Part shown: piece by piece, positions 5,113 to 17,255 of the stretch | Position numbering within the stretch: position 1 is the first letter of the stretch | How the letters are laid out: each line of letters opens with the position of its first letter | Assembly: GCA_039189765.1 (NCBI GenBank) | Contig: JBCCYL010000003.1 | Location: forward strand, 32,001-96,000 | Length of the DNA stretch: 64,000 nt | DNA from: Cyanobacteria bacterium P01_F01_bin.150 | GTDB taxonomy: Bacteria > Cyanobacteriota > Cyanobacteriia > CAKZMO01 | Direction: 5' to 3' | Notes under the pieces: generated by a model | Databases searched by the model: none | What the model was told of the DNA's origin: nothing | What the model saw: only the letters and a program-made list of their open reading frames with translations | Translations under genes and position numbers: made by a program

Positions 5113-8100
5113 TTATTCCAGCTTATAAGAAACAGTGCAGCTCTCTTGAAAATTAAACTTATTTAATATTTTATCATCAGAATTTATCACCTGACAATAA
5201 GATTTTAACCAATTCTGAGTAAGGTTGTTTAACTCATCTGAGCTTAAGTTTTCTAGTTGATTATCATTCAAATATTCAGGAAAATGGACTTGGTTAAGTG
5301 TTGAGGATTTACTGGAATTTAATGGTTCGTCTTTAAGCATTGATTGAAACGCTTTAACGATTTTTATTTTGATGATATCCTCTTTATAGCCCTCGTCTTG
5401 AATTCCCAATAGCTGTCCTGCTCGGATTATGGAAATCGCAGCTAAATCTTCAGCTTCATGTTTTAAAATCGGATCGGGGTTCAGTTTTTTCTCAGCGTCT
5501 CTTAAGTAAAAGAGGATTATGCTATTTATCTGATCATTCCTTGCTTTCTTGAAAAGTGCAAGGTTGTGTTTATTGACAGAACGTGAGTATATAAATATTC
5601 CTAGGAATACAGCTATTGAAACTAGCGATAGGGTTAAAATTACTATCTTCTGGTGTAGTCTTCTTTCAACCAGTGCTCTCTCAAGCTTTTCTTTCTCTGC
5701 TTGATAGTTCTCTTTCTCAAGCTTTTTTTCTAGCTCTATAATCTTTATTTTCTCTTTAGTGCGAGAATGCAGTTTTCGTTCCCTTTTTAGTTCATCTACG
5801 ATATTTCTGATAAAAGTTCTCTTAGAACGAATAAAAGTCACGAGATAGTCATGAATTAGCTGATATCTGTTGGTTGGAGCTTCGGGAATTAAAAATATTA
5901 AGCCAGCTTTTTGAAAAATGTATAAAATTAATTCAATCTGAACTATCTCTTGTACAAGTTTTTGCTCCAAATTTTCAATTTCAGTTTCGATTTCATGACG
6001 TGTTTTAGGCGGTCGTGTATTATTTTCATCAGTAAGAACATATAAGATTAAATTTGCAGCTCTTTTATTTTCAGAACCGCAATCTTGAATTATACTTTCA
6101 AGATACTTCTGAACTAGAATATTTATCTGTTTTTTACCAACAGTCCTATAGATATTTAAGTTAACTATTCCTTCACTTTGAAGCTGGAAACCAACCACTT
6201 GAAGTTCAATAGGTTTGACTTCTCCATTAACCGTTAAGTTTTGAACGATGCGATCGCGCAACTCCTCTTCCATATAAAACTGAGCGCGTTCAGTGAGCTT
6301 ATCTAGAATAGCCTTAGCATCTTCGGGAGTAAAATTACCTAGGGGATAGCGATGCTCTTGACTAAGGATATTTTTATAGAGTTGAATTTGGCCTTCTGTG
6401 GGAGTAGGGGCATAGCGTTCCCATTCCAGCAAATAGTGGAGATAGTCTTCTCGAAGGGATAAAATCACATTAACGTGAAGAATATTGAGACATTGGCTCA
6501 GAAAACTAAAAAAGGTTTGACGTTCGCTAATTTCCCGGCAGTTAAAGAAGAACTCTTCAAACTGGTCAAAAATAAGAACTGTTACCAGATTAGAGCGAGA
6601 ATTTGCCTGAAGCTGAGTCAAAATAGTATCCGCAGACTGTGGCGTAGATACTGCTTGGTCTGGATTTTGTTGAAGCTGGCTTGCTAATTTTTCTCCTAAC
6701 TTTTCGGCCCACTGACAATTAGTATAGGTTCGGGTCATTACCGATAGAATTTTTCGGGTTTCGATGCGTTTGGATTGCAGCGTTGGGATTAATCCTGCTT
6801 GGAGGATGGAGCTTTTGCCAACGCCCAAAGGACCGTGAAGAATGGTTAGTCGGCATTGTTTATCTACAATTCGTTCCCATAGAGCATCCACATCGCGTTG
6901 GCGTCCGGATACGGCAATTTCTGGGGATACTTCAATGGCTTGTCCATCGGCAGATTCTTTGGGCTGCAGGCGTCCGGCACCAATAAAGGCTTGAAATCCG
7001 TATTGATTTTGGAGCTGGTTTTTCTTGCGCTTACACTCAAACGCTTCACGGTAATTCTTTTGCTGAAAATAGATTTCCCGGAGCTGGTCTAAAATGCCGA
7101 TATATAGTTGGGGGTTCTCGGCTTTGGAACCATAGTCGAGGGTCGTACGCAAATGCTGCTTGGCGGCATCGGTATTGCCAAGATGGTAATCCGCTTGGGC
7201 CAGCAGTGATAGAAAGAGACTGCAATCTAGACAAGGCTGGGGCAGACGGTCGACGATCGCCAACGCCTCCTCTACATGAGTTTTAGCCTGTTGATACGCT
7301 TGCTGCTGCAAAGCCAACTCTGCCTTAAAACTGTAATCCCTTGCCCTTTCTAGGGCATAGATATCGCGTCCTTGTGTATCCGACTGATGCAAATCCAGCG
7401 CTTCTCGAACAAGGATGTCCAAATCATCCCACTGCTGTAGACGTTTGAGGGTTTCACTCAAATAACCAATAAAGCGGGCCTTGAGGTCCAAGCGATCGCC
7501 CCCCTCAAACCCAGCCAGAGCCTCCCGAAAATAGTCTGCTGCATCCTGCCAGTGATCCTCTTGGTGAGCGCGATCGCCCTCCGCTTTACGCCAATAGCAA
7601 AGGCCCAGGTGTATGCCAAGAAATCCTGCACGGATAGGTTGCGGTTGGGTTTGCCAAATGTCCAGGCTTTTTTGGTAGTGTGCGATCGCCTGATCAAGGG
7701 TGCGTTGTGTCTCACGATCGTACCCCCAAGAGGTCCGCGCTATTTTACGAAAATAGTCCCGTCCCCAAAGCAAATCTAAGTTCGCCTTTAATTCAGGTTG
7801 CAAGTCATAGGCATGGGTGTCCAAATCCTGCTGGAGGGACTTTAATTCCCAAGACTGTAGGGGAAAAAGGGCAGCATCACCCACGGAAGTACCATCAGCA
7901 TCGACAATATGAGACTGGAGACCCTGGGGAAATAGGGGCCGATGGGATTGCAGTAGCGTTGCCCATAGCCGCTCTGTCTGGTCAGTTAGCCCATGCAAAA
8001 GATCCTCTCTCGACGGCACAAAAGAGCTGGGGCTAGCGGCCCAGTTATAGAAATCTGGGGCGCGTCTAATCATCAGCGGTAAGACATCATCCGTCATCCA

Positions 8101-8484
8101 CAGCAGCATCAGAAAGGGAAACCGTTGATGAAACGCATCACGAACTTGATTGGTCGCAGAGAACAATCCCTCTAGATCTGCTACCTGCTCAAATCCATGA
8201 ATACTGAGGACTCGTAACTCTGCCCGTTCTGCGGTGCTAAAAGTAGTTTCGATGGCATCTACCAAGGTTAAGGTGTCTGCTTTTAGTGTCAGCGATTGAA
8301 TCGGCAACGAACAGGTTTGTCGCAGATGGGTCATTACCCGCTGACGAAGGTCGTTATAGTTGCAACGTACAAGCTTTAGGGCAAATTCTTGCTCATTTAA
8401 TAGGCTAACCGAACGGATCAAGCTACGGAGCGATCGCTCGTTTTCACCAGAGAACTCTAGGGGGGAAGGGCGATCGCTTATCAT
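5113..8484 (-). CDS. Degenerate N-terminal domain + TPR + nSTAND1-type NTPase + coiled coil + TM helix; no WD40 array
   Basis: Walker A GPLGVGKSS, Walker B VLIFDQFEEFF, ILSLREDYL and YQLIHDYL motifs; TPR helices; TM IVILTLSLVSIAVFLGIFIY; ATGA overlap with upstream ATPase. Confidence 0.8.
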   Translation of the reverse strand: MISDRPSPLEFSGENERSLRSLIRSVSLLNEQEFALKLVRCNYNDLRQRVMTHLRQTCSLPIQSLTLKADTLTLVDAIETTFSTAERAELRVLSIHGFEQVADLEGLFSATNQVRDAFHQRFPFLMLLWMTDDVLPLMIRRAPDFYNWAASPSSFVPSREDLLHGLTDQTERLWATLLQSHRPLFPQGLQSHIVDADGTSVGDAALFPLQSWELKSLQQDLDTHAYDLQPELKANLDLLWGRDYFRKIARTSWGYDRETQRTLDQAIAHYQKSLDIWQTQPQPIRAGFLGIHLGLCYWRKAEGDRAHQEDHWQDAADYFREALAGFEGGDRLDLKARFIGYLSETLKRLQQWDDLDILVREALDLHQSDTQGRDIYALERARDYSFKAELALQQQAYQQAKTHVEEALAIVDRLPQPCLDCSLFLSLLAQADYHLGNTDAAKQHLRTTLDYGSKAENPQLYIGILDQLREIYFQQKNYREAFECKRKKNQLQNQYGFQAFIGAGRLQPKESADGQAIEVSPEIAVSGRQRDVDALWERIVDKQCRLTILHGPLGVGKSSILQAGLIPTLQSKRIETRKILSVMTRTYTNCQWAEKLGEKLASQLQQNPDQAVSTPQSADTILTQLQANSRSNLVTVLIFDQFEEFFFNCREISERQTFFSFLSQCLNILHVNVILSLREDYLHYLLEWERYAPTPTEGQIQLYKNILSQEHRYPLGNFTPEDAKAILDKLTERAQFYMEEELRDRIVQNLTVNGEVKPIELQVVGFQLQSEGIVNLNIYRTVGKKQINILVQKYLESIIQDCGSENKRAANLILYVLTDENNTRPPKTRHEIETEIENLEQKLVQEIVQIELILYIFQKAGLIFLIPEAPTNRYQLIHDYLVTFIRSKRTFIRNIVDELKRERKLHSRTKEKIKIIELEKKLEKENYQAEKEKLERALVERRLHQKIVILTLSLVSIAVFLGIFIYSRSVNKHNLALFKKARNDQINSIILFYLRDAEKKLNPDPILKHEAEDLAAISIIRAGQLLGIQDEGYKEDIIKIKIVKAFQSMLKDEPLNSSKSSTLNQVHFPEYLNDNQLENLSSDELNNLTQNWLKSYCQVINSDDKILNKFNFQESCTVSYKLE

Positions 8485-9899
8485 AATTGCCCCCGAAATT
8501 GCTGCCCCCGAAACTGTTTTGTTTCCTGGAGGGCTGGATTAACTTCGAACCATCGTCCCTCTTGAGGATCGTCATACTCAAATACAAAGAGACTCCGCAA
8601 CAGCATTTGATGGGCTTTTTCCCCGCTGACCCGCTTTTGTTGGGCTACCTGCTGAATTAACTCCCACTCATGGTCTTCCACCGCAAGACTAAGGCTGTCG
8701 CGATATTCTCGAATGGCCCGCTCTAAGCAGTCACGGGTAATGGGTGGGTCATCTTCCTCCAAACAGCGATGCAAAATGCTTAACAGATTACGGCTATGAC
8801 CTCCGGCAATGCGACACAGTCGCTCCAGGGTATCCGGTGAGTCAAACACCTGATCGACAAAATCTAACCGCTGTTCTGGGGGGGCGTCTGGAAACGCCCG
8901 TGCCATTACCATCTGTTTCAGGAGCTGGATACCCTCGCCGTAATCGCTACCATCCATTTTATAAATGGGGACCATGGGCAGGCGCTTTACGTCGTTTCCC
9001 CCGCCCAGACGATTTTTTAAGTACTCTGCATCATTGGAAAAGGCCAAAACAAGGGGAATGGTGTAAATCACATGGCAATCAAGCTGGCGGAGCTGATCGC
9101 CTCGGTCTACAAATAAATACTCTGGCAAGGTGCGCTTGCTGCCGTCTTTCTGGCGATTATCTACTCGGTCTAAATTATCGACAATCACTACCAGCCCTTC
9201 TTTTCCCTGATCCCGTAGCTGTTTCTGGGCAGGTTCCAATAGCTCTTTGTTAATCACCTCTAAAATAGTCTTGACCCGAGGTTCAAGATGCTGGGAAAGG
9301 AGCGATCGCACATTTTCACTATTTCTAGCAGTACTCGTTAATTCACCGAGGCCAAAGGCAATGGAATAGCTATCATTATCTCGCTTGATTCCGAACTCTT
9401 TTTTTAGCTTTATCCCCGTTCCGGCAACTTCAACGTCTGGAGCCTGAAAAGTAAGCCCCGTAACTTCAGAGGTTAGTAAGGCCTTGGCTTCATTGATAAT
9501 TTTGAGAAAGCGAGTGGGCTGGAGCTGAATCTTAAACGGCTCTAGACTCAGAGCGATTTGACGGGCGATCGCCAACAAAATATCGCTGATATCCACGTTC
9601 GCCATATCCAAATCTTCAGTGGAGGCAAAATAAACCACATGGAAGCCTTGGTCTTCCAGTTCCGCCTGGAGTCGCCGTAGTTCGGTGGATTTGCCACAGC
9701 CAATATGTCCCGTAAAGAGTTGGCAGGTGGGTTCACCCAGCTGCGATCGGTTGAGGATAGTGCGCTCTAGGCGCTTAATAATTTTGCCGCCTCTCACGGA
9801 GGCAAAGTCTATATAATACTTCCGGTCTTCAGGCTTACTGATTTGCAACGTGCGACTAGGATCACACGCATGAAAAAATTTGATGGGGTCGAGTTGCAT
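8481..9899 (-). CDS. P-loop ATPase (cyanobacterial AAA/STAND-related ATP-binding protein)
   Basis: Walker A GHIGCGKST, Walker B VVIVDNLD, GGHSRNL; ATG at 9899. Confidence 0.85.
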   Translation of the reverse strand: MQLDPIKFFHACDPSRTLQISKPEDRKYYIDFASVRGGKIIKRLERTILNRSQLGEPTCQLFTGHIGCGKSTELRRLQAELEDQGFHVVYFASTEDLDMANVDISDILLAIARQIALSLEPFKIQLQPTRFLKIINEAKALLTSEVTGLTFQAPDVEVAGTGIKLKKEFGIKRDNDSYSIAFGLGELTSTARNSENVRSLLSQHLEPRVKTILEVINKELLEPAQKQLRDQGKEGLVVIVDNLDRVDNRQKDGSKRTLPEYLFVDRGDQLRQLDCHVIYTIPLVLAFSNDAEYLKNRLGGGNDVKRLPMVPIYKMDGSDYGEGIQLLKQMVMARAFPDAPPEQRLDFVDQVFDSPDTLERLCRIAGGHSRNLLSILHRCLEEDDPPITRDCLERAIREYRDSLSLAVEDHEWELIQQVAQQKRVSGEKAHQMLLRSLFVFEYDDPQEGRWFEVNPALQETKQFRGQQFRGQL

Positions 9900-10419
9900 G
9901 GTAGATGCCGGGGCAGAAGTGACAATCAAAGGAACTATTTAAAATAGTTATACCCCTACCACCAAGGAAAAATCTACTGATTCCCCTGAAAAACTACACT
10001 TTCGTTACAGTAAAATGCCCAACAAAGACTTTCTATTTCATCGCGAGATGCTAGAAAATAGAAATTTGAGGGTACGGTAGCAACAATGCGATGATAGCCC
10101 CGACACTACAATAGCGGATGTACAGAGGTGGCACTTCGGCGATCGCTAGAATAGTTGCAGCTCAATGAATCCTTTCAGTTTAAAATTGGCGAAACAACCA
10201 AAGTTTGACAGGTGGCACACTGCTCTTATGACACCCTTAGGCCCATCGAGCGATATTCTTCATCGTGACTCGACCACTCATCGCAAGATGGTGCTAATGA
10301 CGACAATGAGGCACTTAATCGTTGTCTCATCAAGCGTAAACATCAGGCATTGGAGCAGTGATAAGATATCATAACTGGGATTTTGGTTGGTGCTGCGTTT
10401 TGCTTTACATTCAGTTTCT

Positions 10420-10740
10420 ATAGGGTTGCTGTATTATCTTTCTGAACAGGAGGTAAGAGCGTTGATGCGGTTAACTCAAGATTTAGCAGCGACGGGCAGT
10501 TTTTGGGCTTGTGATGTGATGAATGATGTAGTTTGCAATGGTAAAGATAAATGGGCGCAGTATTGGCAGTGGGGATGTGATGAACCGGAGTCTTTTTTTA
10601 GGCAGTATGGTTGGCAGGCTCAGGCCATTCAGCCAGGTGAGGAAGGCGCTTGTTTCGATCGGCATACGTTTCAGTTTGCACCACGAGAAGAGAAAGAGGA
10701 GATGCATATTTTTTTCGTGACGGCGTTTAAGAGTAAGTGA
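10420..10740 (+). pseudogene. C-terminal fragment of an LCM-family SAM-dependent methyltransferase
   Basis: GLLYYLSEQEVRAL, GCDEPESFF..YGW and QPGEEGA motifs; the N-terminal SAM-binding half is absent. Confidence 0.65.
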
Positions 10741-10893
10741 GTCCCCTTGTCCCCCATTAGCGATCGCCGCTCCCATCACATTACGATTGACCAAGCCTAA
10801 AGACAAATTAAATAGAAGACTGGAATGATCGCCCACTTCAGGCCATAACTCAAGCCCCAGCGGTTGTGAGGAACTCCGGGGCTGGCCTCTCAT

Positions 10894-11172
10894 TTAGCCT
10901 TTGGCTGGGGGCTGGTTAACCCGCACTTTCTTGGTGAGGGTGGCCATCACCTCATTGCCCCGCCCGGTTGGCATTAGTCTGCTCCATTCATTGGGTTCGG
11001 CATAGTTGAGGGCATACAGATGCTTGATGGTGGCCTGAACGATGCTTGGGCGACCAAATAGCATATGCCGTACGGGTTCATACTGGGGGCTGGGCAATGG
11101 TGCAGGGGCAGATGATAAATCGGCACTCGCCTCTGTGGACGCATAGGCGTCCGAGTCTGAAGGTTGAAACAT
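10894..11172 (-). CDS. Small cyanobacterial hypothetical protein (EPVRHMLFG..YAEPNEWS type)
   Basis: 92-aa ORF with a GGAG SD ~10 nt upstream; resembles a multicopy cyanobacterial family as recalled, not searched. Confidence 0.75.
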   Translation of the reverse strand: MFQPSDSDAYASTEASADLSSAPAPLPSPQYEPVRHMLFGRPSIVQATIKHLYALNYAEPNEWSRLMPTGRGNEVMATLTKKVRVNQPPAKG

Positions 11173-11385
11173 CGGTTCTGATCTCCGTATTGGGTTTGTA
11201 GGAAACCAGAACTCAACTAACCTCTAACCATCCCGCGATCGCCTGTGACAAGTCGGGTCGGCTAGGGCTAAAATCAACCCAAGCCCTTTGACTGGCTGGT
11301 TCAGTACGAGGGAATAGCCGTTAGCAGGTGCTTCCAACACCTGCTAGCGGCGCTAAAGGATAACTGAGTTCTGAACTTGGGATAG
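11173..11385 (-). promoter_or_regulatory. Structured 5' leader with alternative RBS-sequestering and anti-sequestering helices
   Basis: 12-bp SD hairpin 11175-11186/11201-11212; competing 20-nt helix 11207-11226/11354-11373; 14-bp hairpin 11317-11351. Confidence 0.55.
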
Positions 11386-11710
11386 CAATACGCTTTGGGA
11401 TAGTACGTCAAGGATGTTCGGCACGTCCTGTAGCAATTACGATCCTAGTCACTGAAGATAGGCTGACTGTGGGTGTTTCGTCAAGGAACGGATGGGGGCG
11501 TAAAGTGGCGCTTTTACGATTCTGAGGTCGTAAATGGGAGTTTATCGCCCATTTCGTCCTTATTTTAGGATAGTCACAGTTTGGGCATTGGGGGCACTGG
11601 GGAATGTATGGAGGCAATCGCCATCACGCTACTTCCTCCCACCCCATCAGGACCATCCGCCTCATATTCCAGAACCATTTGCCCTGATTGAAGTCCGTGA
11701 TGCTCAGAGC

Positions 11711-12865
11711 TTATTCATCGATCGCTATTCTTTGGAAAGCCTGATTCACATAGGTTTGGTTAATCCGTTCTTGCTCTAATCTTAGCCCCTGATCAACCAG
11801 ATCAACGTAGAGCGATCGCTCCTCTTCCGTCAGATGAGGCAGATTTTCTGGAGGCGCTGGGGAAACGGATACGGCAAATTCTTGGAAGGCATCGAAGGTC
11901 TGGCGGTCCATCATGATTGAAACGGTACGGGGAAAGTGCGATCGCATTTGCGACAGAATTTTGAAGCCATCGCCATCCAAATCTCCCCAATACAGCAGCT
12001 CACAGTCAGCTAGCCACTGGGCATATTTGAGATTTTGTACGGCGTAGCCACTGCCAAAGAGGGCGATCGCGTTCTCTATCTGGGGCAATGTCAGAAAAGT
12101 CATAAGATTTTCGGTCACGATGCAGCGCTGGGGTGGCAGGTTGAGGCAATTGAAATCAGATAGAGGCAGACTGATATCCTGCAATTGCAGCGGGGAGGGA
12201 TAGAGAAATCTAAGGCGAATTAGAGGTTCTCGATACTTGAGCAAAAACCGTTTTTCAAAGATATAATCCCGCTCATTTTCAATAGTGATCAGCTTTTCAT
12301 CTGGCAGAATCGCTTCTAAAAGGCTACGAAGGATGGCCTTATTTTGCTCAATAAATTTGGTGTCGACCGCAATGGAGAGTTCGCGAATATATCGATTAGG
12401 ATTTTTATAGTGATGATCCCGAAAATATTGGCAGACTTTGAGTAGATTGGGCCAGCGATCGCCATTTTCTACTACTTTTTTGGGATGGGCTAAAAGCCAG
12501 GATTCCAGTTCAGGAATGATTAACCTAATTTGGTGAATATCCGCTTTGAACTGCTTGACTTCTGTCTCCTTTTTGATAAGTTTTATATAGTCCGCTTCAT
12601 TATCAATACTCACCCGCTGAGGCAAAGACTGTACTCCATATTTTTGCGTCCGTCGGCTTTCCAAGTGCAGATCGTATCCATAGCCAATCGTTTGTTTAGA
12701 ATTTTTGATAAGCTGATTGACCGCTTTCTGAAGCGTTGGATAATCTTTGGGGCGGGCACCGATAGGAAACTCCAACGGGAAAAAAGAATCTCCTGTAACC
12801 ACCGAACAAAGAAAATTAGTGTACCGATACTGGGCTTTCTTTTGGATTTGGGCAGGGTCAATCAT
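11711..12865 (-). CDS. jetD: Wadjet nuclease JetD (DUF3322 + DUF2220 Toprim)
   Basis: YIRELSIAVDTKFIE, ENLMTF, GSGY, YWGDLDGDGFKIL, RLEQERI; likely start MIDP at 12865. Confidence 0.9.
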   Translation of the reverse strand: MIDPAQIQKKAQYRYTNFLCSVVTGDSFFPLEFPIGARPKDYPTLQKAVNQLIKNSKQTIGYGYDLHLESRRTQKYGVQSLPQRVSIDNEADYIKLIKKETEVKQFKADIHQIRLIIPELESWLLAHPKKVVENGDRWPNLLKVCQYFRDHHYKNPNRYIRELSIAVDTKFIEQNKAILRSLLEAILPDEKLITIENERDYIFEKRFLLKYREPLIRLRFLYPSPLQLQDISLPLSDFNCLNLPPQRCIVTENLMTFLTLPQIENAIALFGSGYAVQNLKYAQWLADCELLYWGDLDGDGFKILSQMRSHFPRTVSIMMDRQTFDAFQEFAVSVSPAPPENLPHLTEEERSLYVDLVDQGLRLEQERINQTYVNQAFQRIAIDE

Positions 12866-12967
12866 TTTCTTAAGCAGTGCCGTTATTTGCGTAGTAGCGC
12901 GACAGGCTCCTGGTTGCCCTGACATTGTAAGATTTAAAGAGTACGCGCAACTCGGGATAGTGAGCCA

Positions 12968-13633
12968 ATGGTCAATGTCGTATCTCGCGTAAAGAATTCT
13001 CAGCCCGATAATGAGTTTTCTCCCCAAGCGTTTGTAGTGTTGCAGAATATCAGTTGGCCCACGTATCAGGCGCTTTTAGCCGATATGGGCGAGCATCGGG
13101 CTGCCCGACTGACCTACTGTTGTGGCACTCTGGAAATTAAGATGCCATCCAAATTACATGAGCTGATCAATCGTCTGTTGGAACGAATTATCGCTACGTT
13201 GACGGAAGAATTGGGATTGGACATTGTGCCGTTGGGGTCCACTCGTTTTGATGCCGAAGAGAGTGAACAGGGTGTAGAACCAGATTCCTGTTTTTATATT
13301 CAACATGCCAATTGTGTAGAGCCAGACGATATTGCGCCTCCCCAAGATATTCCTCCGGATCTGGTGGTTGAGGTAGACATCACCAGTTCATCAAAGTCTC
13401 GTCTATTGGTATACCAAATGATGGGAGTCCCAGAAGTGTGGCGCTACAATCGTCAGGAGATAAAGATTCTTCTGCTCACTCAAGGGGAATATGTGGAGTG
13501 TTCCAGTAGCCCGACATTTCCCATGCTCTCAGCGAAGACCTTATGGCGGTTTTTAGAGCTTGGCAAACAATCCAAGAACCACAATCAGATCATTGCTGAA
13601 CTCCGGGCATGGATTAGAAAACAGGCTGGTTGA
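12968..13633 (+). CDS. Uma2 family endonuclease-like protein
   Basis: ISWPTYQAL, EPDSCFYIQ, PPDLVVEVDITS, GVPEVWRY. Confidence 0.92.
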   Translation: MVNVVSRVKNSQPDNEFSPQAFVVLQNISWPTYQALLADMGEHRAARLTYCCGTLEIKMPSKLHELINRLLERIIATLTEELGLDIVPLGSTRFDAEESEQGVEPDSCFYIQHANCVEPDDIAPPQDIPPDLVVEVDITSSSKSRLLVYQMMGVPEVWRYNRQEIKILLLTQGEYVECSSSPTFPMLSAKTLWRFLELGKQSKNHNQIIAELRAWIRKQAG

Positions 13634-13742: not shown

Positions 13743-16700
13743 TTACTCTGAGCGATCGCCATTTAGAGCCTCCTGCCGTTTATATCGGTAGTCTTCAATG
13801 GTAATCGAGGCAATTTTCGAGCAATCGCCTTCAGGAGTATTAGAAACAAAGTGAAGGCTGGCAATATAGGGCTCAATCACATTAATTTTATCTTTGGGAG
13901 TCACGACTAATAGCTGGAGATTCAGGTTCTTAAATAATTCCATGGCATAGCGGGCATTGCTATCATCAGACTTGCTAAAGGCTTCGTCAATGACCACAAA
14001 ACGGAAGGATTTATGCTTGATGCTTTCCTGGTTTAGTCCAAACTGATAGGCGATCGCCGAGGCCAAAATCGTGTAGGCCAGCTTTACCTTTTGCCCCCCG
14101 GATTTTCCAGAAGAGTCCGTATGGTGTTCCTTTTCCGTATGGTCCGCTCGATAGCGTTCACTAACGGAAAAATCCAGCCACTTGCGCACATCGGTCACCA
14201 ATGCCGTCCATCGGTCTTCGGCCTTAAAACGTTCAATCAGTCGAGTTTGAATATTATTAAATCGCTCTTCATTATCTTCAAAATCCTGTTTAGCCACATC
14301 CCCCAAACAGAGTTTCAAATCATCCTTAAAGTCGCGAATTTCGCGATTGCGAGTGGTGTCACAACAGAGGTTAATATAAGTAGAGTCGGTGTAGTCAATC
14401 TTTTGCAGCGATTCGTTGAGTTCTTCAATGGCTTGTTGGATTTCTTCTTCCTGCTTTTCCAAAGCACTTTTGAACATAGAAATGGCAATAATCACCTTTT
14501 CGTTCATTAACTGCTTAAATCGCTTTTCGTGGCGGGGTAAATCATCCTTTTGAATCTGATTTTTACGATTAACGTATTCCTCCACGTAGTCCAAGGTCGT
14601 GCCCAATTCCGATGCCATTTCAGGAAAAGAATTTTTGAACCGTTCCATTTGAATTTGCAATGAGCTTTCCGATTTTTCTTGCTTGCGCTCATGCTGTCGA
14701 ACCTTGTCCCGCAAAAAGTCATGCAAGTTCCGCTCTTCTTTAGCAATGGTAGCAAGGGTCATCTCATATTTCTTCAGCTTGGTGGCCATGGCTTTTTCAA
14801 ATGCCTCTAGGTCACTGGCCGCAGATCCGTCTGCGATCGCCTCACATTTGCTCTGCTCCTCCTGGGCAGAGGCCTGACGATCTTCTAGGGTTTGAATCTG
14901 ACGGATCAGCGTTTCTCTCTGTTGCTCTGCCTCAGCAATTTCAGTCCGGGCATCTTGGAGCTGCTGCTCCAGTTGCTTGAGCCGATCGGAGCTAGCCTCT
15001 AGCTCTTGGCGCTGGTTTTCTAAATCGATTCGTTTGAAGTCCAGCGAACGCCAATCGATGTCGGAGAAGTCCTCATAGTTCATAAAATCCTGGAGCCAAG
15101 AGCGCTGCTGCTGGCGTTTACCTCGCTCCTCTTCAATAAACTGAATCCGCTGCTCAATCTGCTTCAACTGTTTTTTAATTTTGCGGAGTTCTGACTCCAG
15201 CGCTTTAATTTTGTTGACATTGCTCCAGCCCAGAATGTAACGACTGCGATCGCCAATTTTAGACCGATCGTCCTTCTCGTGACGTTCGCCTCCGTGCTTA
15301 ATCAATCCGCTAGTAGTGATGGCCCGCGCTTCCCGCTGGAACTGCTCAATAGAGTCACAACACACGTAGTTAAACTGGCGCACCAGTTGGCCCCGGAGCC
15401 ACTGATAAAAGGTGAGATTGTCCTGTTTGATTTCCAGTTTGTAGGGCACATGGTCCGGCGGCACATCTCGCTGGGTAGCTTTGCCGCCAGGACCATCATC
15501 TGTAATCCGGTAATACACCAAGCGGCCCTTCAAATGGGTGCGATGAACATAGGCATTTACCGCTGCATAATCATCATCGGACACCAGCACACATAGGCCA
15601 AAGCCCCGCAACAATCGCTCGATTGCCCCTTCCCATTCCTGGGCTTCAGGCCGCACCTGCAATAGTTCTCCCACAAAGGGCAGTTCAGTTTCATCTAACT
15701 TGAGATCTTTGACCAAGCGATCGCGAATATCCAAATTACTCTTGGGGATCTGGCTTTTGCGACTGCGGAGAGACTTGAGCTCTTCTTCCAGTTCTGTACA
15801 CTGTTTGACCAGTTCCGCCTGTTCGACCTTGAGTTCGTCCCGCTGACCTTCCAGGATGTTTAGCCCCGTCTCAATCTCAGCCTTGAGGTCCTCTCCCTCG
15901 GTGCGATTAGTGTAAAAAGTGTCACGATCGGTATACTCCCCAAACTCTAGCTTTGCTGCCAGTTGATTGTAGGCAGTGGCCTGTTTTTGACTGCGATCGA
16001 CCGCCTCTTTGGCCTGGGCAATTTCTCGTGCCAGCTCCTGCAAGCGCTGGCCGATGCTGTCTTGCTTAATCGCAAATTCCAGGTCTTTTTCCCGCTGGCG
16101 TAGATCAGAAAGGTGGCGATCGCGCTCGGTCCGTTGGTCCTGATACTGGGTCAGTTCTTGATTAATCGCCTGTAGGTCTTGGACCAGCAAGGTCAACTTC
16201 TTACAAGCAAAAAAGGCCGGTAGAATTCCCTGTAACGCCTGGGTTTTAGCCGCATCATCCTTGAGCCGCTTATATTTTTTGGCTTCATCGGTCAGGGGTT
16301 TGAGGGCCTCTAACTGCTGACGGGCATTGAGGATGGCGGTGTGGGAAACGGTAAGGTTTTCGTAGCTTTCTTGCAGCTCCCGAATCTTTGTGCGCATGTC
16401 CACTTTTTCCAACATGTGATTGCGCACAAAATCGTTCAGTCCCCCGATTTCTTTGATGCTGACGGTTTGGTTAAACAGGTCCAACGCCTTTTCGGACTGG
16501 AGACCCAACCGTTTGCGAAACTGCTGACTGTAGCGGGTAAAGTCATCAAACAAGAATGCGCCATTCACCTTGAGCTGCTTCTTTAAATCCGCGACTCGAC
16601 TGAACTGGGAAAAATCCTGACGGATGGTTAACTGCTCATCCGCCAGCACAAAAAATTTCCGCACCGAGCCATCCTGCATCCACAGGACTTGAGCCAGGGT

Positions 16701-17255
16701 CACGTTCTGGGCGCTGACATGATCCTGGAAATAGGCGAGCAGCACCGACAACGTGGCTTTTTCTCGCAATAGCTTGGGCTTAGACCCGTAGGACTCTTCC
16801 GATCGCGTCCGTCCATAGGCCCCCTGGACATAGCTCTTTTCATTCCGCTCTTTCTTACCGGTCCCTGTGGACGCTTGATTATAGTTGCGGCCCCGATTTG
16901 GAACAAGCAGCGTCAACATTCCATCTACCAGGGTTGACTTTCCAGACCCATTGGCCCCGGTCAGTAATCCAATTCCGCCGTTTAAATCAAGCGCCCAAGG
17001 AGTTTGATCAAACGTGCCCCAATTCAGTATTTCCAATCGCTGTAGGCGAAATCCAGCCAAGGCATTTTCACCGTAATGGCCATTGCTATTTTGGCTCACC
17101 GTATTTTGGCTCGCTGTACCTTGGCTCCCCGTATCTTGGCTTACTTCTCCTTGGCCCCCAGTACTCTTGCCATTGCCATTCTCTGAACCATTTTTTGAAC
17201 TATTCTTTGCCGTACGCTCGTTATCTAGGGTATCCAGAACATCAGCCTTTGTCAT
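13743..17255 (-). CDS. jetC: Wadjet SMC-like ATPase JetC
   Basis: LEILNWGTF, Walker A GANGSGKST, long coiled coils, PFVGELL hinge region, KSGGQK signature, VVIDEAF Walker B; overlaps jetB. Confidence 0.93.
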   Translation of the reverse strand: MTKADVLDTLDNERTAKNSSKNGSENGNGKSTGGQGEVSQDTGSQGTASQNTVSQNSNGHYGENALAGFRLQRLEILNWGTFDQTPWALDLNGGIGLLTGANGSGKSTLVDGMLTLLVPNRGRNYNQASTGTGKKERNEKSYVQGAYGRTRSEESYGSKPKLLREKATLSVLLAYFQDHVSAQNVTLAQVLWMQDGSVRKFFVLADEQLTIRQDFSQFSRVADLKKQLKVNGAFLFDDFTRYSQQFRKRLGLQSEKALDLFNQTVSIKEIGGLNDFVRNHMLEKVDMRTKIRELQESYENLTVSHTAILNARQQLEALKPLTDEAKKYKRLKDDAAKTQALQGILPAFFACKKLTLLVQDLQAINQELTQYQDQRTERDRHLSDLRQREKDLEFAIKQDSIGQRLQELAREIAQAKEAVDRSQKQATAYNQLAAKLEFGEYTDRDTFYTNRTEGEDLKAEIETGLNILEGQRDELKVEQAELVKQCTELEEELKSLRSRKSQIPKSNLDIRDRLVKDLKLDETELPFVGELLQVRPEAQEWEGAIERLLRGFGLCVLVSDDDYAAVNAYVHRTHLKGRLVYYRITDDGPGGKATQRDVPPDHVPYKLEIKQDNLTFYQWLRGQLVRQFNYVCCDSIEQFQREARAITTSGLIKHGGERHEKDDRSKIGDRSRYILGWSNVNKIKALESELRKIKKQLKQIEQRIQFIEEERGKRQQQRSWLQDFMNYEDFSDIDWRSLDFKRIDLENQRQELEASSDRLKQLEQQLQDARTEIAEAEQQRETLIRQIQTLEDRQASAQEEQSKCEAIADGSAASDLEAFEKAMATKLKKYEMTLATIAKEERNLHDFLRDKVRQHERKQEKSESSLQIQMERFKNSFPEMASELGTTLDYVEEYVNRKNQIQKDDLPRHEKRFKQLMNEKVIIAISMFKSALEKQEEEIQQAIEELNESLQKIDYTDSTYINLCCDTTRNREIRDFKDDLKLCLGDVAKQDFEDNEERFNNIQTRLIERFKAEDRWTALVTDVRKWLDFSVSERYRADHTEKEHHTDSSGKSGGQKVKLAYTILASAIAYQFGLNQESIKHKSFRFVVIDEAFSKSDDSNARYAMELFKNLNLQLLVVTPKDKINVIEPYIASLHFVSNTPEGDCSKIASITIEDYRYKRQEALNGDRSE

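Follow-up and report, generated by a model that had tools for sequence, protein, structure and literature searches.

Can the RNA in front of a small bacterial gene fold in two ways, and could the choice between the folds set how well that gene is translated? This question is raised by a locus of Cyanobacteria bacterium P01_F01_bin.150, where a leader with several complementary segments precedes an open reading frame (ORF) of 92 amino acids (aa). The locus lies in a stretch of 64,000 nucleotides (nt) of assembly GCA_039189765.1 (contig JBCCYL010000003.1, positions 32,001 to 96,000), called the window below. Leader and ORF are on its minus strand; their coordinates are those of the window, and sequences are given in mRNA sense. 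The leader belongs to a new structured-RNA family, absent from Rfam, which would gate the Shine-Dalgarno (SD) sequence of small ORFs. The best-supported mechanism is a switch by branch migration between a long-range helix, P1, and a helix that holds the SD sequence, so that the module would act as a translational gate; the probability of this reading is put at roughly 0.55.

Two helices that share a strand

The SD sequence of the small ORF is predicted to be buried in a helix of 12 base pairs (bp), two of them G-U, formed by GUUCUGGUUUCC (11212-11201) and GGAGAUCAGAAC (11186-11175). The AUG of the ORF (11172-11170) is located just 3' of this SD helix. The long-range helix joins CAGAACUCAGUUAUCCUUUA (11373-11354) to UAGAGGUUAGUUGAGUUCUG (11226-11207), with 19 of 20 positions paired: 16 Watson-Crick pairs, three G-U pairs and one U-U mismatch. 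Both helices make use of the segment GUUCUG (11212-11207).

These pairings had been proposed in an initial annotation of the locus, and they are present as described there. A sequence check and a repeat search recover the long-range arms (11207-11226 and 11354-11373, 80% Watson-Crick complementary, with a spacer of 127 nt), as well as the inner hairpin that had been given as 14 bp at 11317-11351, whose 14-nt arms (11317-11330 and 11338-11351) are 93% complementary. The 6 nt said to be shared with the anti-SD arm are the GUUCUG segment, and the count of pairs confirms that five of the six non-Watson-Crick positions are G-U. The idea of a structured mRNA leader is borne out by folding and, as described below, by covariation in paralogs and in other genomes. 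Folding of a 251-nt stretch gives -91.8 kcal/mol, compared with -70.3 +/- 4.6 kcal/mol for 200 shuffled sequences (z = -4.69), none of which folds as well, and the minimum-energy structure includes the long-range helix.

A module with many copies in one genome

The initial annotation described this leader only; the leader in the window is one of about 50 copies, in its genome, of a large RNA family. Leader and ORF form a module that is multicopy in the source genome (10.6 Mb in 350 contigs). A blastn search with the leader gives seven copies at 87-100% identity and more at 68-76%, while tblastn finds 60 copies of the 92-aa protein. An nhmmer profile of the leader has 52 matches, 46 of them full length, and the covariance model R1, which was built on a short core alignment of the leader, has 50. 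Every full-length leader in this genome precedes an ORF, except for one at a contig end. Homology among the close copies spans 11575-10827 of the window, with the ORF included; for distant copies it extends from 11377 to about 10916, beginning exactly where the long-range helix does and stopping where the ORF ends.

A promoter-like site of the form TTGAC[GT], 17 or 18 nt, TATNNT is found 39-84 nt upstream of P1 in 39 of the 46 full-length copies, where shuffled sequences lead one to expect 4.3. Because this site is upstream of P1, the predicted transcript contains the 5' arm, which is probably transcribed. The module has a promoter-like site and a short 5' spacer in front, then a structured RNA domain of about 170 nt, and lastly a hairpin that sequesters the SD sequence, followed by the small ORF.

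Eight copies in the source genome make up a second subfamily (L051-L060; for example, L051:322-560, minus strand), with a divergent leader of the same architecture and the protein motif QLGYAEPHEWS. The switch segments of this subfamily differ in sequence but keep the same three-way complementarity (AGCGUCCAA / UUGGACGUUCCU / AGGAGCGUUC), and its core is recognised by R1 with E-values of about 1e-5 to 1e-6.

Covariation in paralogs and in other genomes

Covariation among homologs had been named by the initial annotation as a way to check the proposed structure, and it was found. Two sets were used: the 46 leaders of the source genome, and an alignment (A3) of the window copy with 66 leaders of other genomes, 67 rows in all. 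The structure model contains P1, P1b, P2, P3, P4, P5 and a short SD hairpin (for coordinates see Table 1), and the controls were 500 shuffles and helices with slid partners. Both the long-range helix and the SD helix recur in the 46 paralogs as well as in the 66 foreign leaders.

Among the 46 leaders, 94.2% of cells are paired, compared with 88.9 +/- 0.3% in shuffles and 30-52% in the slid controls; of the 46 pairs, 16 show changes on both sides. The shuffles have 10.8 +/- 1.6 such pairs, and none of the 500 reaches 16. The independent set A3 gives 88.9% of cells paired (82.1 +/- 0.3% in shuffles, 29-50% in slid controls) and 34 of 49 pairs that change on both sides (21.1 +/- 2.0 in shuffles), which again none of the 500 shuffles attains. 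In A3, such changes on both sides occur in four of nine pairs of P1, which is 99.1% paired, in five of seven pairs of P1b, in 11 of 13 of P2, in three of four of P3 (95.1% of cells paired) and in six of seven of P4. P5 is the weakest helix, with 78.6% of cells paired. Taken as an alignment result, this supports a five-helix domain (P1b and P2-P5) closed by the long-range P1. A conserved structured domain supported by covariation, as is required of a riboswitch aptamer, is thus present.

The long SD helix is more weakly supported than the five-helix domain, and the support comes from conservation, cell counts and one strongly covarying pair. In A3, 90.1% of its cells are paired (86.1 +/- 0.5% in shuffles), and 30 cells are changed on both sides (14.4 +/- 3.5 in shuffles); neither value is reached by any of the 500 shuffles. 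The loop of this helix tolerates insertions of 14 to about 100 nt, exactly there, as is expected of a hairpin loop.

One fold or two

If P1 and the long SD helix compete for the same strand, a base in the shared segment has to suit two partners. One C of GUUCUG (position 178 of the alignment) indeed covaries with partners in both the 5' arm and the pre-AUG box. In 112 leaders, the triples of 5' arm, switch strand and pre-AUG box are GCG in 95, AUA in five, GUA in three, AUG in three and gapped in six. Within A3, the pair 6-178 is GC in 51 rows, AU in eight and GU in three, and the pair 178-286 is CG in 55, UA in nine and UG in three.

The energies of the two states are close. When either P1 or the long SD helix is forced in the 46 paralogs, the difference is -0.55 +/- 3.85 kcal/mol, with 27 leaders that favour P1 and 19 that favour the long SD helix; for the window copy the values are -88.9 and -88.3. 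The minimum-energy fold of the predicted full 5' untranslated region (UTR) has P1 beside a 6-bp SD hairpin, and in the centroid three P1 pairs are exchanged for three pairs of the SD helix. The three-way complementarity is also found, with different sequences, in other lineages, including genome G158. The two-state idea of the initial annotation therefore gains support from double covariation, from near-equal energies and from the recurrence of the same logic with other sequences elsewhere.

The alternative helix had, however, been expected to free the ribosome-binding site, and the folding calculations do not agree with this. In these models, the formation of P1 is predicted to shorten the SD helix from about 12 to about 6 bp, and the SD sequence is not freed. 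The stability of SD hairpins is generally known to affect initiation, and even a helix that is shortened to about 6 bp but not opened should have a marked effect on translation.

How the gate might work

The switch strand GUUCUGGUUUCC may give its first six bases either to the 5' arm of P1 (CAGAAC...) or to the pre-AUG box (...CAGAAC). Branch migration would then set the length of the SD helix, with about 6 bp in the closed state of P1 and about 12 bp once the base of P1 has opened. Stabilisation of P1, for example through binding of a ligand or protein within the five-helix domain, would make initiation easier. Removal of the 5' arm, for example by a complementary antisense RNA or by 5' processing, would lock the long SD helix and turn translation off.

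Several points weigh against a gate of this kind. Both helix states are predictions. With P1 forced, the SD sequence is still paired to UUCC in a 6-bp hairpin, and the probability that it is unpaired is 0.03 in the window copy and 0.18 as the mean of the 46 paralogs; unconstrained, the mean is 0.05. Since the SD sequence is predicted to be paired in both states, the 'on' state would only be a weaker hairpin. In several other lineages P1 and the SD helix share only about 3 nt, so that the two helices could largely coexist as a coaxial stack with no switching. Only five of the 12 pairs of the long SD helix change on both sides, which is the level of the shuffles (4.5 +/- 1.0; reached by 255 of 500). 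Related sequences can exceed shuffle controls without any structure, a concern that the slid-partner controls partly answer. The 5' arm, as crudely extracted, pairs weakly in four of 17 loci, all from genome G017, according to duplex energies calculated without a shuffle control. Finally, among 20 loci of more distant relatives of the protein, for which the start codons were picked by hand, an automated test finds the re-pairing in only one (L159).

Occurrence in other cyanobacteria

A protein-pattern scan of species-representative genomes found 236 relatives of the 92-aa protein, and the 80 best loci among them were analysed. They come from Leptolyngbya sp. PCC 7375, Heron Island J, BC1307, Leptothoe, Adonisia, Phormidesmis, Oscillatoria sp. 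CS-180 and various metagenome-assembled genomes, and in 76 of the 80 the leader is directly upstream of the ORF. The protein profile matches 35 of 301 sampled genomes of the phylum. Of 151 genomes sampled within the class, 45 have a match to the RNA model R1, and these matches cover 30 of 81 genera; in five further genomes R1 has 14, 22, 15, 33 and 21 matches.

RNA and protein are not always found together. Of 28 R1 matches examined in five other genomes, 11 are without an ORF of the 92-aa family. The genomes G333 and G314 have the same RNA core in front of a family of helical ORFs of 71-72 aa, or in front of an ORF of 115 aa (L175, L176, L181, L186, L191, L196); elsewhere in these two genomes it is followed by a GC-rich hairpin, and the next 150 nt or so contain no ORF (L180, L185, L188, L195, L198). 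These matches before unrelated ORFs or none are full length and score 47-58 bits. Such an arrangement makes the RNA a modular element, and weakens the case for strict autoregulation by the 92-aa protein. In the remaining loci of the more distant protein relatives mentioned above there are other leaders, such as one with a short CCC/GGG hairpin at the SD sequence. Relatives that start with M(M)TQ (L153, L154, L156, L162-L164, L166) have an upstream region in which GCGATCGC palindromes are found together with a short CCC/GGG hairpin of this kind.

Rfam was searched as the initial annotation had proposed, and no family reaches its gathering score. For positions 9500-13000 of the window, release 15 (4227 models) at E <= 10 gives three weak matches, none of them on the leader strand; the nearest is sR32 on the plus strand, with 13.5 bits against a gathering score of 40. 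For 11 other loci, searched at E <= 1, there is one sub-threshold match, which is outside the leader. Within the full texts that a literature search could cover, no paper on the motif or the protein was found, which does not show that the motif is unpublished.

The 92-aa protein

The N-terminus of the protein is variable and disordered, whereas a domain of about 55 aa is conserved, and in it H36, G40, Y57, A58, E59 and W63 are invariant. An AlphaFold model predicts a beta-alpha-beta arrangement (strand 30-40, helix 42-54, strand 75-85), with a confidence score (pLDDT) of at least 95 over most of residues 31-80. The modelled protein is soluble and has no membrane helix, and the alignment shows no hydrophobic span. 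The initial annotation had likened the module to type I toxin mRNAs; this analogy fails on the protein, given its 92 aa and the confident soluble model.

The description as a protein of unknown function still applies, as no significant match to a family or fold was found. A profile search places at least 549 clusters at 50% identity in the family, and the 150 that were listed are of 41-185 aa. Among named families, Pfam gives only Topoisom_bac (17.8 bits, below the cut-off of 35.1) and NCBIfam only reverse gyrase (E = 0.23), while PADLOC and PHROGs give no family and no match, respectively. The best hit of a sequence search of the PDB has an E-value of 0.39. With the protein model, Foldseek finds no PDB match at E <= 0.001, and a wide VIA-align search finds no chain at Z >= 5; there is a weak likeness to KH, ACT and ribosomal S10-type folds, with a best Z of 4.0. 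The ESM Atlas returns only unnamed cyanobacterial clusters and one that is automatically named 'Peptide ABC transporter substrate-binding protein family'.

A promoter-like element on the opposite strand

The loop of P4 lies over a promoter-like element of the opposite strand. A -10-like hexamer with A2 and T6 is present under this loop in all 54 of 54 diverse cores (alignment A4), compared with 9.6 expected from shuffles, and it occurs in ten sequence variants. A -35-like hexamer is found at the same column in 30 of the 54. Judged by its position, an antisense RNA started from this site would overlap the 5' arm and shift the balance towards the long SD helix. The conserved A...U pattern might just as well be a motif of the RNA loop. 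A search for a terminator-like site found none. A tiny upstream ORF in the P4 loop (AUG CCN UAG) was also considered; it occurs in some subfamilies only, and was rejected because it is absent in the window copy and in many others.

Alternative explanations

The gate could take the specific form of a riboswitch that senses a metabolite or an ion, in which the ligand of a five-helix aptamer would stabilise P1, weaken the SD helix and turn translation on. In favour of this are a junction of several helices whose stems covary and whose junction and loop bases are conserved, the coupling of P1 to an SD-sequestering platform, and the presence of the core before at least three unrelated small ORF families or none (G333, G314), as this modularity is typical of sensors. 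We regard it as possible but rather unlikely: the downstream genes do not point to any metabolite (they match no family in Pfam, NCBIfam, PADLOC or PHROGs), 14-50 copies per genome are unusual for riboswitches, and the SD sequence remains paired in the P1 state. Another form of control would be a cis-antisense RNA, complementary to the leader's 5' half, that acts in the manner of type I toxin-antitoxin systems; it would take away the 5' arm, lock the 12-bp SD helix and perhaps trigger cleavage, and the protein, as the effector under control, might be toxic. The GTGACA, 18 nt, TAAAAT site, with its -10-like hexamer in 54 of 54 cores against 9.6 expected, would provide the start of such an RNA. 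The units are self-contained, scattered and multicopy with heterogeneous neighbours, and the mRNA has both a long-range helix between its 5' and 3' parts and a buried SD sequence. The antisense transcript is only predicted, however, and the A...U pattern is explicable as a loop motif; the search for a terminator-like site found none, and a soluble beta-alpha-beta protein of 80-92 aa is unlike typical type I toxins, so that this kind of control appears improbable. Much the same can be said of a leader whose balance between P1 and the SD helix is set by a bound protein, either the small protein itself or a common trans-acting one, resulting in autoregulation or in a ribonucleoprotein. The RNA accompanies the ORF in most copies (76 of 80 foreign loci, and the source genome apart from the contig end), and the apical GGUG/CACC stem of P2 is conserved in sequence as well as in pairing, which suggests recognition. 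Even so, the RNA core is also found before unrelated ORFs or none (the 11 of 28 matches that lack an ORF of the 92-aa family), and the likeness of the small alpha/beta model to KH, ACT and S10-type folds, with its best Z of only 4.0, is no significant match to an RNA-binding fold in Foldseek or VIA-align. A protein-set balance is therefore doubtful.

It may also be asked whether there is a switch at all. P1 and the short SD hairpin could form one static fold that damps translation, stabilises the mRNA or melts with temperature, and the pre-AUG complementarity would then be a by-product. This agrees with the minimum-energy fold of the full 5' UTR, in which P1 and the 6-bp hairpin stand side by side, with an SD sequence that is paired in both forced states, with the overlap of about 3 nt in some lineages, and with the pair counts of the long SD helix at shuffle level. 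It does not readily explain the covariation of position 178 with both the pre-AUG box and the 5' arm, the persistence of the three-way complementarity in subfamily 2 and in G158 despite their different sequences, or the near-equal state energies across 46 paralogs; a single static fold is thus unlikely. The 20-nt inverted repeat around 127 nt, together with the many copies per genome, might in turn recall a dispersed repeat like a miniature inverted-repeat transposable element, with the inverted repeat as its DNA termini. This candidate was rejected, and its chances are taken to be minimal: the arms are internal to a larger conserved fold and covary as RNA pairs, the repeated unit starts about 200 nt before the 5' arm, includes the ORF and reaches past the stop codon, and copies down to 68% identity keep the pairing through compensatory changes and through G-U changes that allow pairing on only one of the strands.

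It is tempting to speculate beyond the translational gate that the five-helix domain is the aptamer of a new class of riboswitch or RNA sensor. The 14-50 sites that it occupies in each genome, upstream of members of three or more unrelated small-protein families, would then form a genome-wide translational regulon, with a second layer of control by cis-antisense RNA from the promoter-like site at P4. This extension is an unlikely one on present evidence. If the gate itself holds, cyanobacteria would have an orphan class of sensors or gates, that is, an uncatalogued, large and widespread RNA family with dozens of copies per genome and a clear switch design. It would also offer a handle on an uncharacterised family of small proteins, and the dozens of natural switch variants in one genome would be a ready-made set of compensatory mutants for the study of leader folding.

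Features of the window copy

The coordinates of the leader and its ORF are collected in Table 1.

Table 1. Positions of predicted elements of the leader and of the small ORF in the window.
Feature	Position	Strand	Remarks
Sense promoter-like site TTGACG, 18 nt, TATCTT	11455..11484	-	Predicted start near 11448, upstream of the P1 5' arm
P1 5' arm, outer part (CAGAACUCA)	11365..11373	-	Competes with the pre-AUG box for the switch strand
P1b 5' strand CUUUAGC	11352..11358	-	Partner 11222-11228
P2 hairpin	11317..11351	-	Apical GGUG/CACC stem conserved, 7-nt loop variable
P3 hairpin ACUG, 7-nt loop, CAGU	11291..11305	-	Covariation
P4 hairpin	11260..11285	-	Loop conserved (UUGAUUUUAG in the window copy)
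P5 hairpin CCC...GGG	11232..11257	-	Variable loop; GCGATCGC palindrome inside the loop of the window copy
P1b 3' strand GUUAGAG	11222..11228	-	Pairs with the P1b 5' strand
Switch strand	11201..11215	-	P1 3' arm 11207-11215; anti-SD 11201-11212; shared GUUCUG 11207-11212
SD GGAG (11183-11186) and pre-AUG box CAGAAC (11175-11180)	11175..11186	-	Partners of the switch strand
ORF, 92 aa	10894..11172	-	Variable N-terminal part, conserved C-terminal domain of about 55 aa, no known family
Opposite-strand promoter-like site GTGACA, 18 nt, TAAAAT	11245..11274	+	-10 hexamer under the P4 loop

Further features were seen at this locus. The segment GGGUUGA (11274-11280, in the 5' strand and loop of P4) is complementary to UCAACCU (11161-11167, codons 2-4) on the same minus strand, a complementarity that could form a pseudoknot. 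The first codons of the ORF, AUGUUUCAA, are nearly invariant in nucleotides across the 46 copies of the source genome. On the upstream side, a mechanically called ORF of 69 aa (11408-11617, minus strand) overlaps the conserved region; since it has no Pfam match and overlies the promoter-like site, it is probably not a gene.

Gene neighbourhood

The initial annotation placed the small gene next to a Wadjet system. A JetD gene with JetD_C and DUF3322 domains is indeed its neighbour (11711-13027, minus strand), but the association does not recur. In the source genome no neighbour family accompanies more than ten of the 60 copies, and there is no jet gene among the neighbour families, as typed with Pfam, that are common to at least two copies. 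None of the 132 nearest neighbours in 76 foreign loci has a Pfam match to a Jet family; these neighbours vary from housekeeping genes to Uma2, MNT-like nucleotidyltransferases, DUF559 and defence genes. As the neighbours are diverse and none is recurrently Wadjet, JetD is an incidental neighbour here, and a role as a Wadjet accessory gene was rejected, there being no recurrent adjacency to jet genes in the source genome or in foreign loci. Upstream of JetD on the same strand is an ORF of 1170 aa (13743-17255, minus strand), SMC-like by eye only, and between the two lies a Uma2-family gene (12968-13633, plus strand) that overlaps the 5' end of JetD.

Downstream of the small ORF there is a protein of 1123 aa with TPR and nSTAND1 domains (5113-8484, minus strand), whose gene has a 4-nt overlap with that of a P-loop NTPase of 482 aa (AAA_16/KAP-like; 8481-9929, minus strand). 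CHAT/STAND genes are located within 6 kb of 13 of the 60 copies, where 5.7 +/- 2.3 are expected and none of 500 simulations reaches 13; within 1 kb the count is three of 60 against 1.7 +/- 1.2, which is not significant (125 of 500). This is only a weak enrichment, and the idea of an obligate CHAT/STAND 'conflict' gene partner was rejected. Searches by tblastn with CHAT-domain segments find 81 separate CHAT loci in the 10.6-Mb source genome, and on one contig (C248) three copies of the small gene alternate with TPR-CHAT genes.

Comparison with known regulatory systems

Like the autoregulatory leaders of ribosomal proteins, the leader is a structured 5' UTR that would gate the SD sequence of the following gene. 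Unlike in those leaders, its RNA core is also located before unrelated ORFs or none, and no RNA-binding fold is recognised in the protein.

In the type I toxin systems hok/sok, tisB/istR and zorO/orzO, the toxin mRNAs have long-range pairing between 5' and 3' parts and are under antisense control, and type I toxins are small hydrophobic or membrane peptides, usually of less than 60 aa. The present loci resemble them in being small, self-contained and multicopy, with an SD sequence buried by long-range pairing and a possible cis-antisense promoter. They differ in their protein, which is modelled as soluble and has 80-92 aa, and in a leader that is far more elaborate, with its covarying five-helix domain.

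Cyanobacteria are known to have cis-regulatory RNAs before short ORFs, the glutamine riboswitch and the Downstream-peptide motifs, sometimes several per genome. The leader is likewise a cyanobacterial RNA in front of small ORFs; those two, however, are much smaller pseudoknotted aptamers, and no Rfam model matches on the leader strand.

Competition between P1 and an anti-SD strand is known from translational riboswitches such as the thiM thiamine pyrophosphate riboswitch and the add adenine riboswitch. In contrast to these, the leader matches no Rfam model, precedes uncharacterised small proteins, is present in 14-50 copies per genome and keeps its SD sequence paired in the predicted P1 state. 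It shares with them a multi-helix domain closed by P1, a 3' strand of P1 that is also part of the SD helix, and two folds of nearly equal predicted energy.

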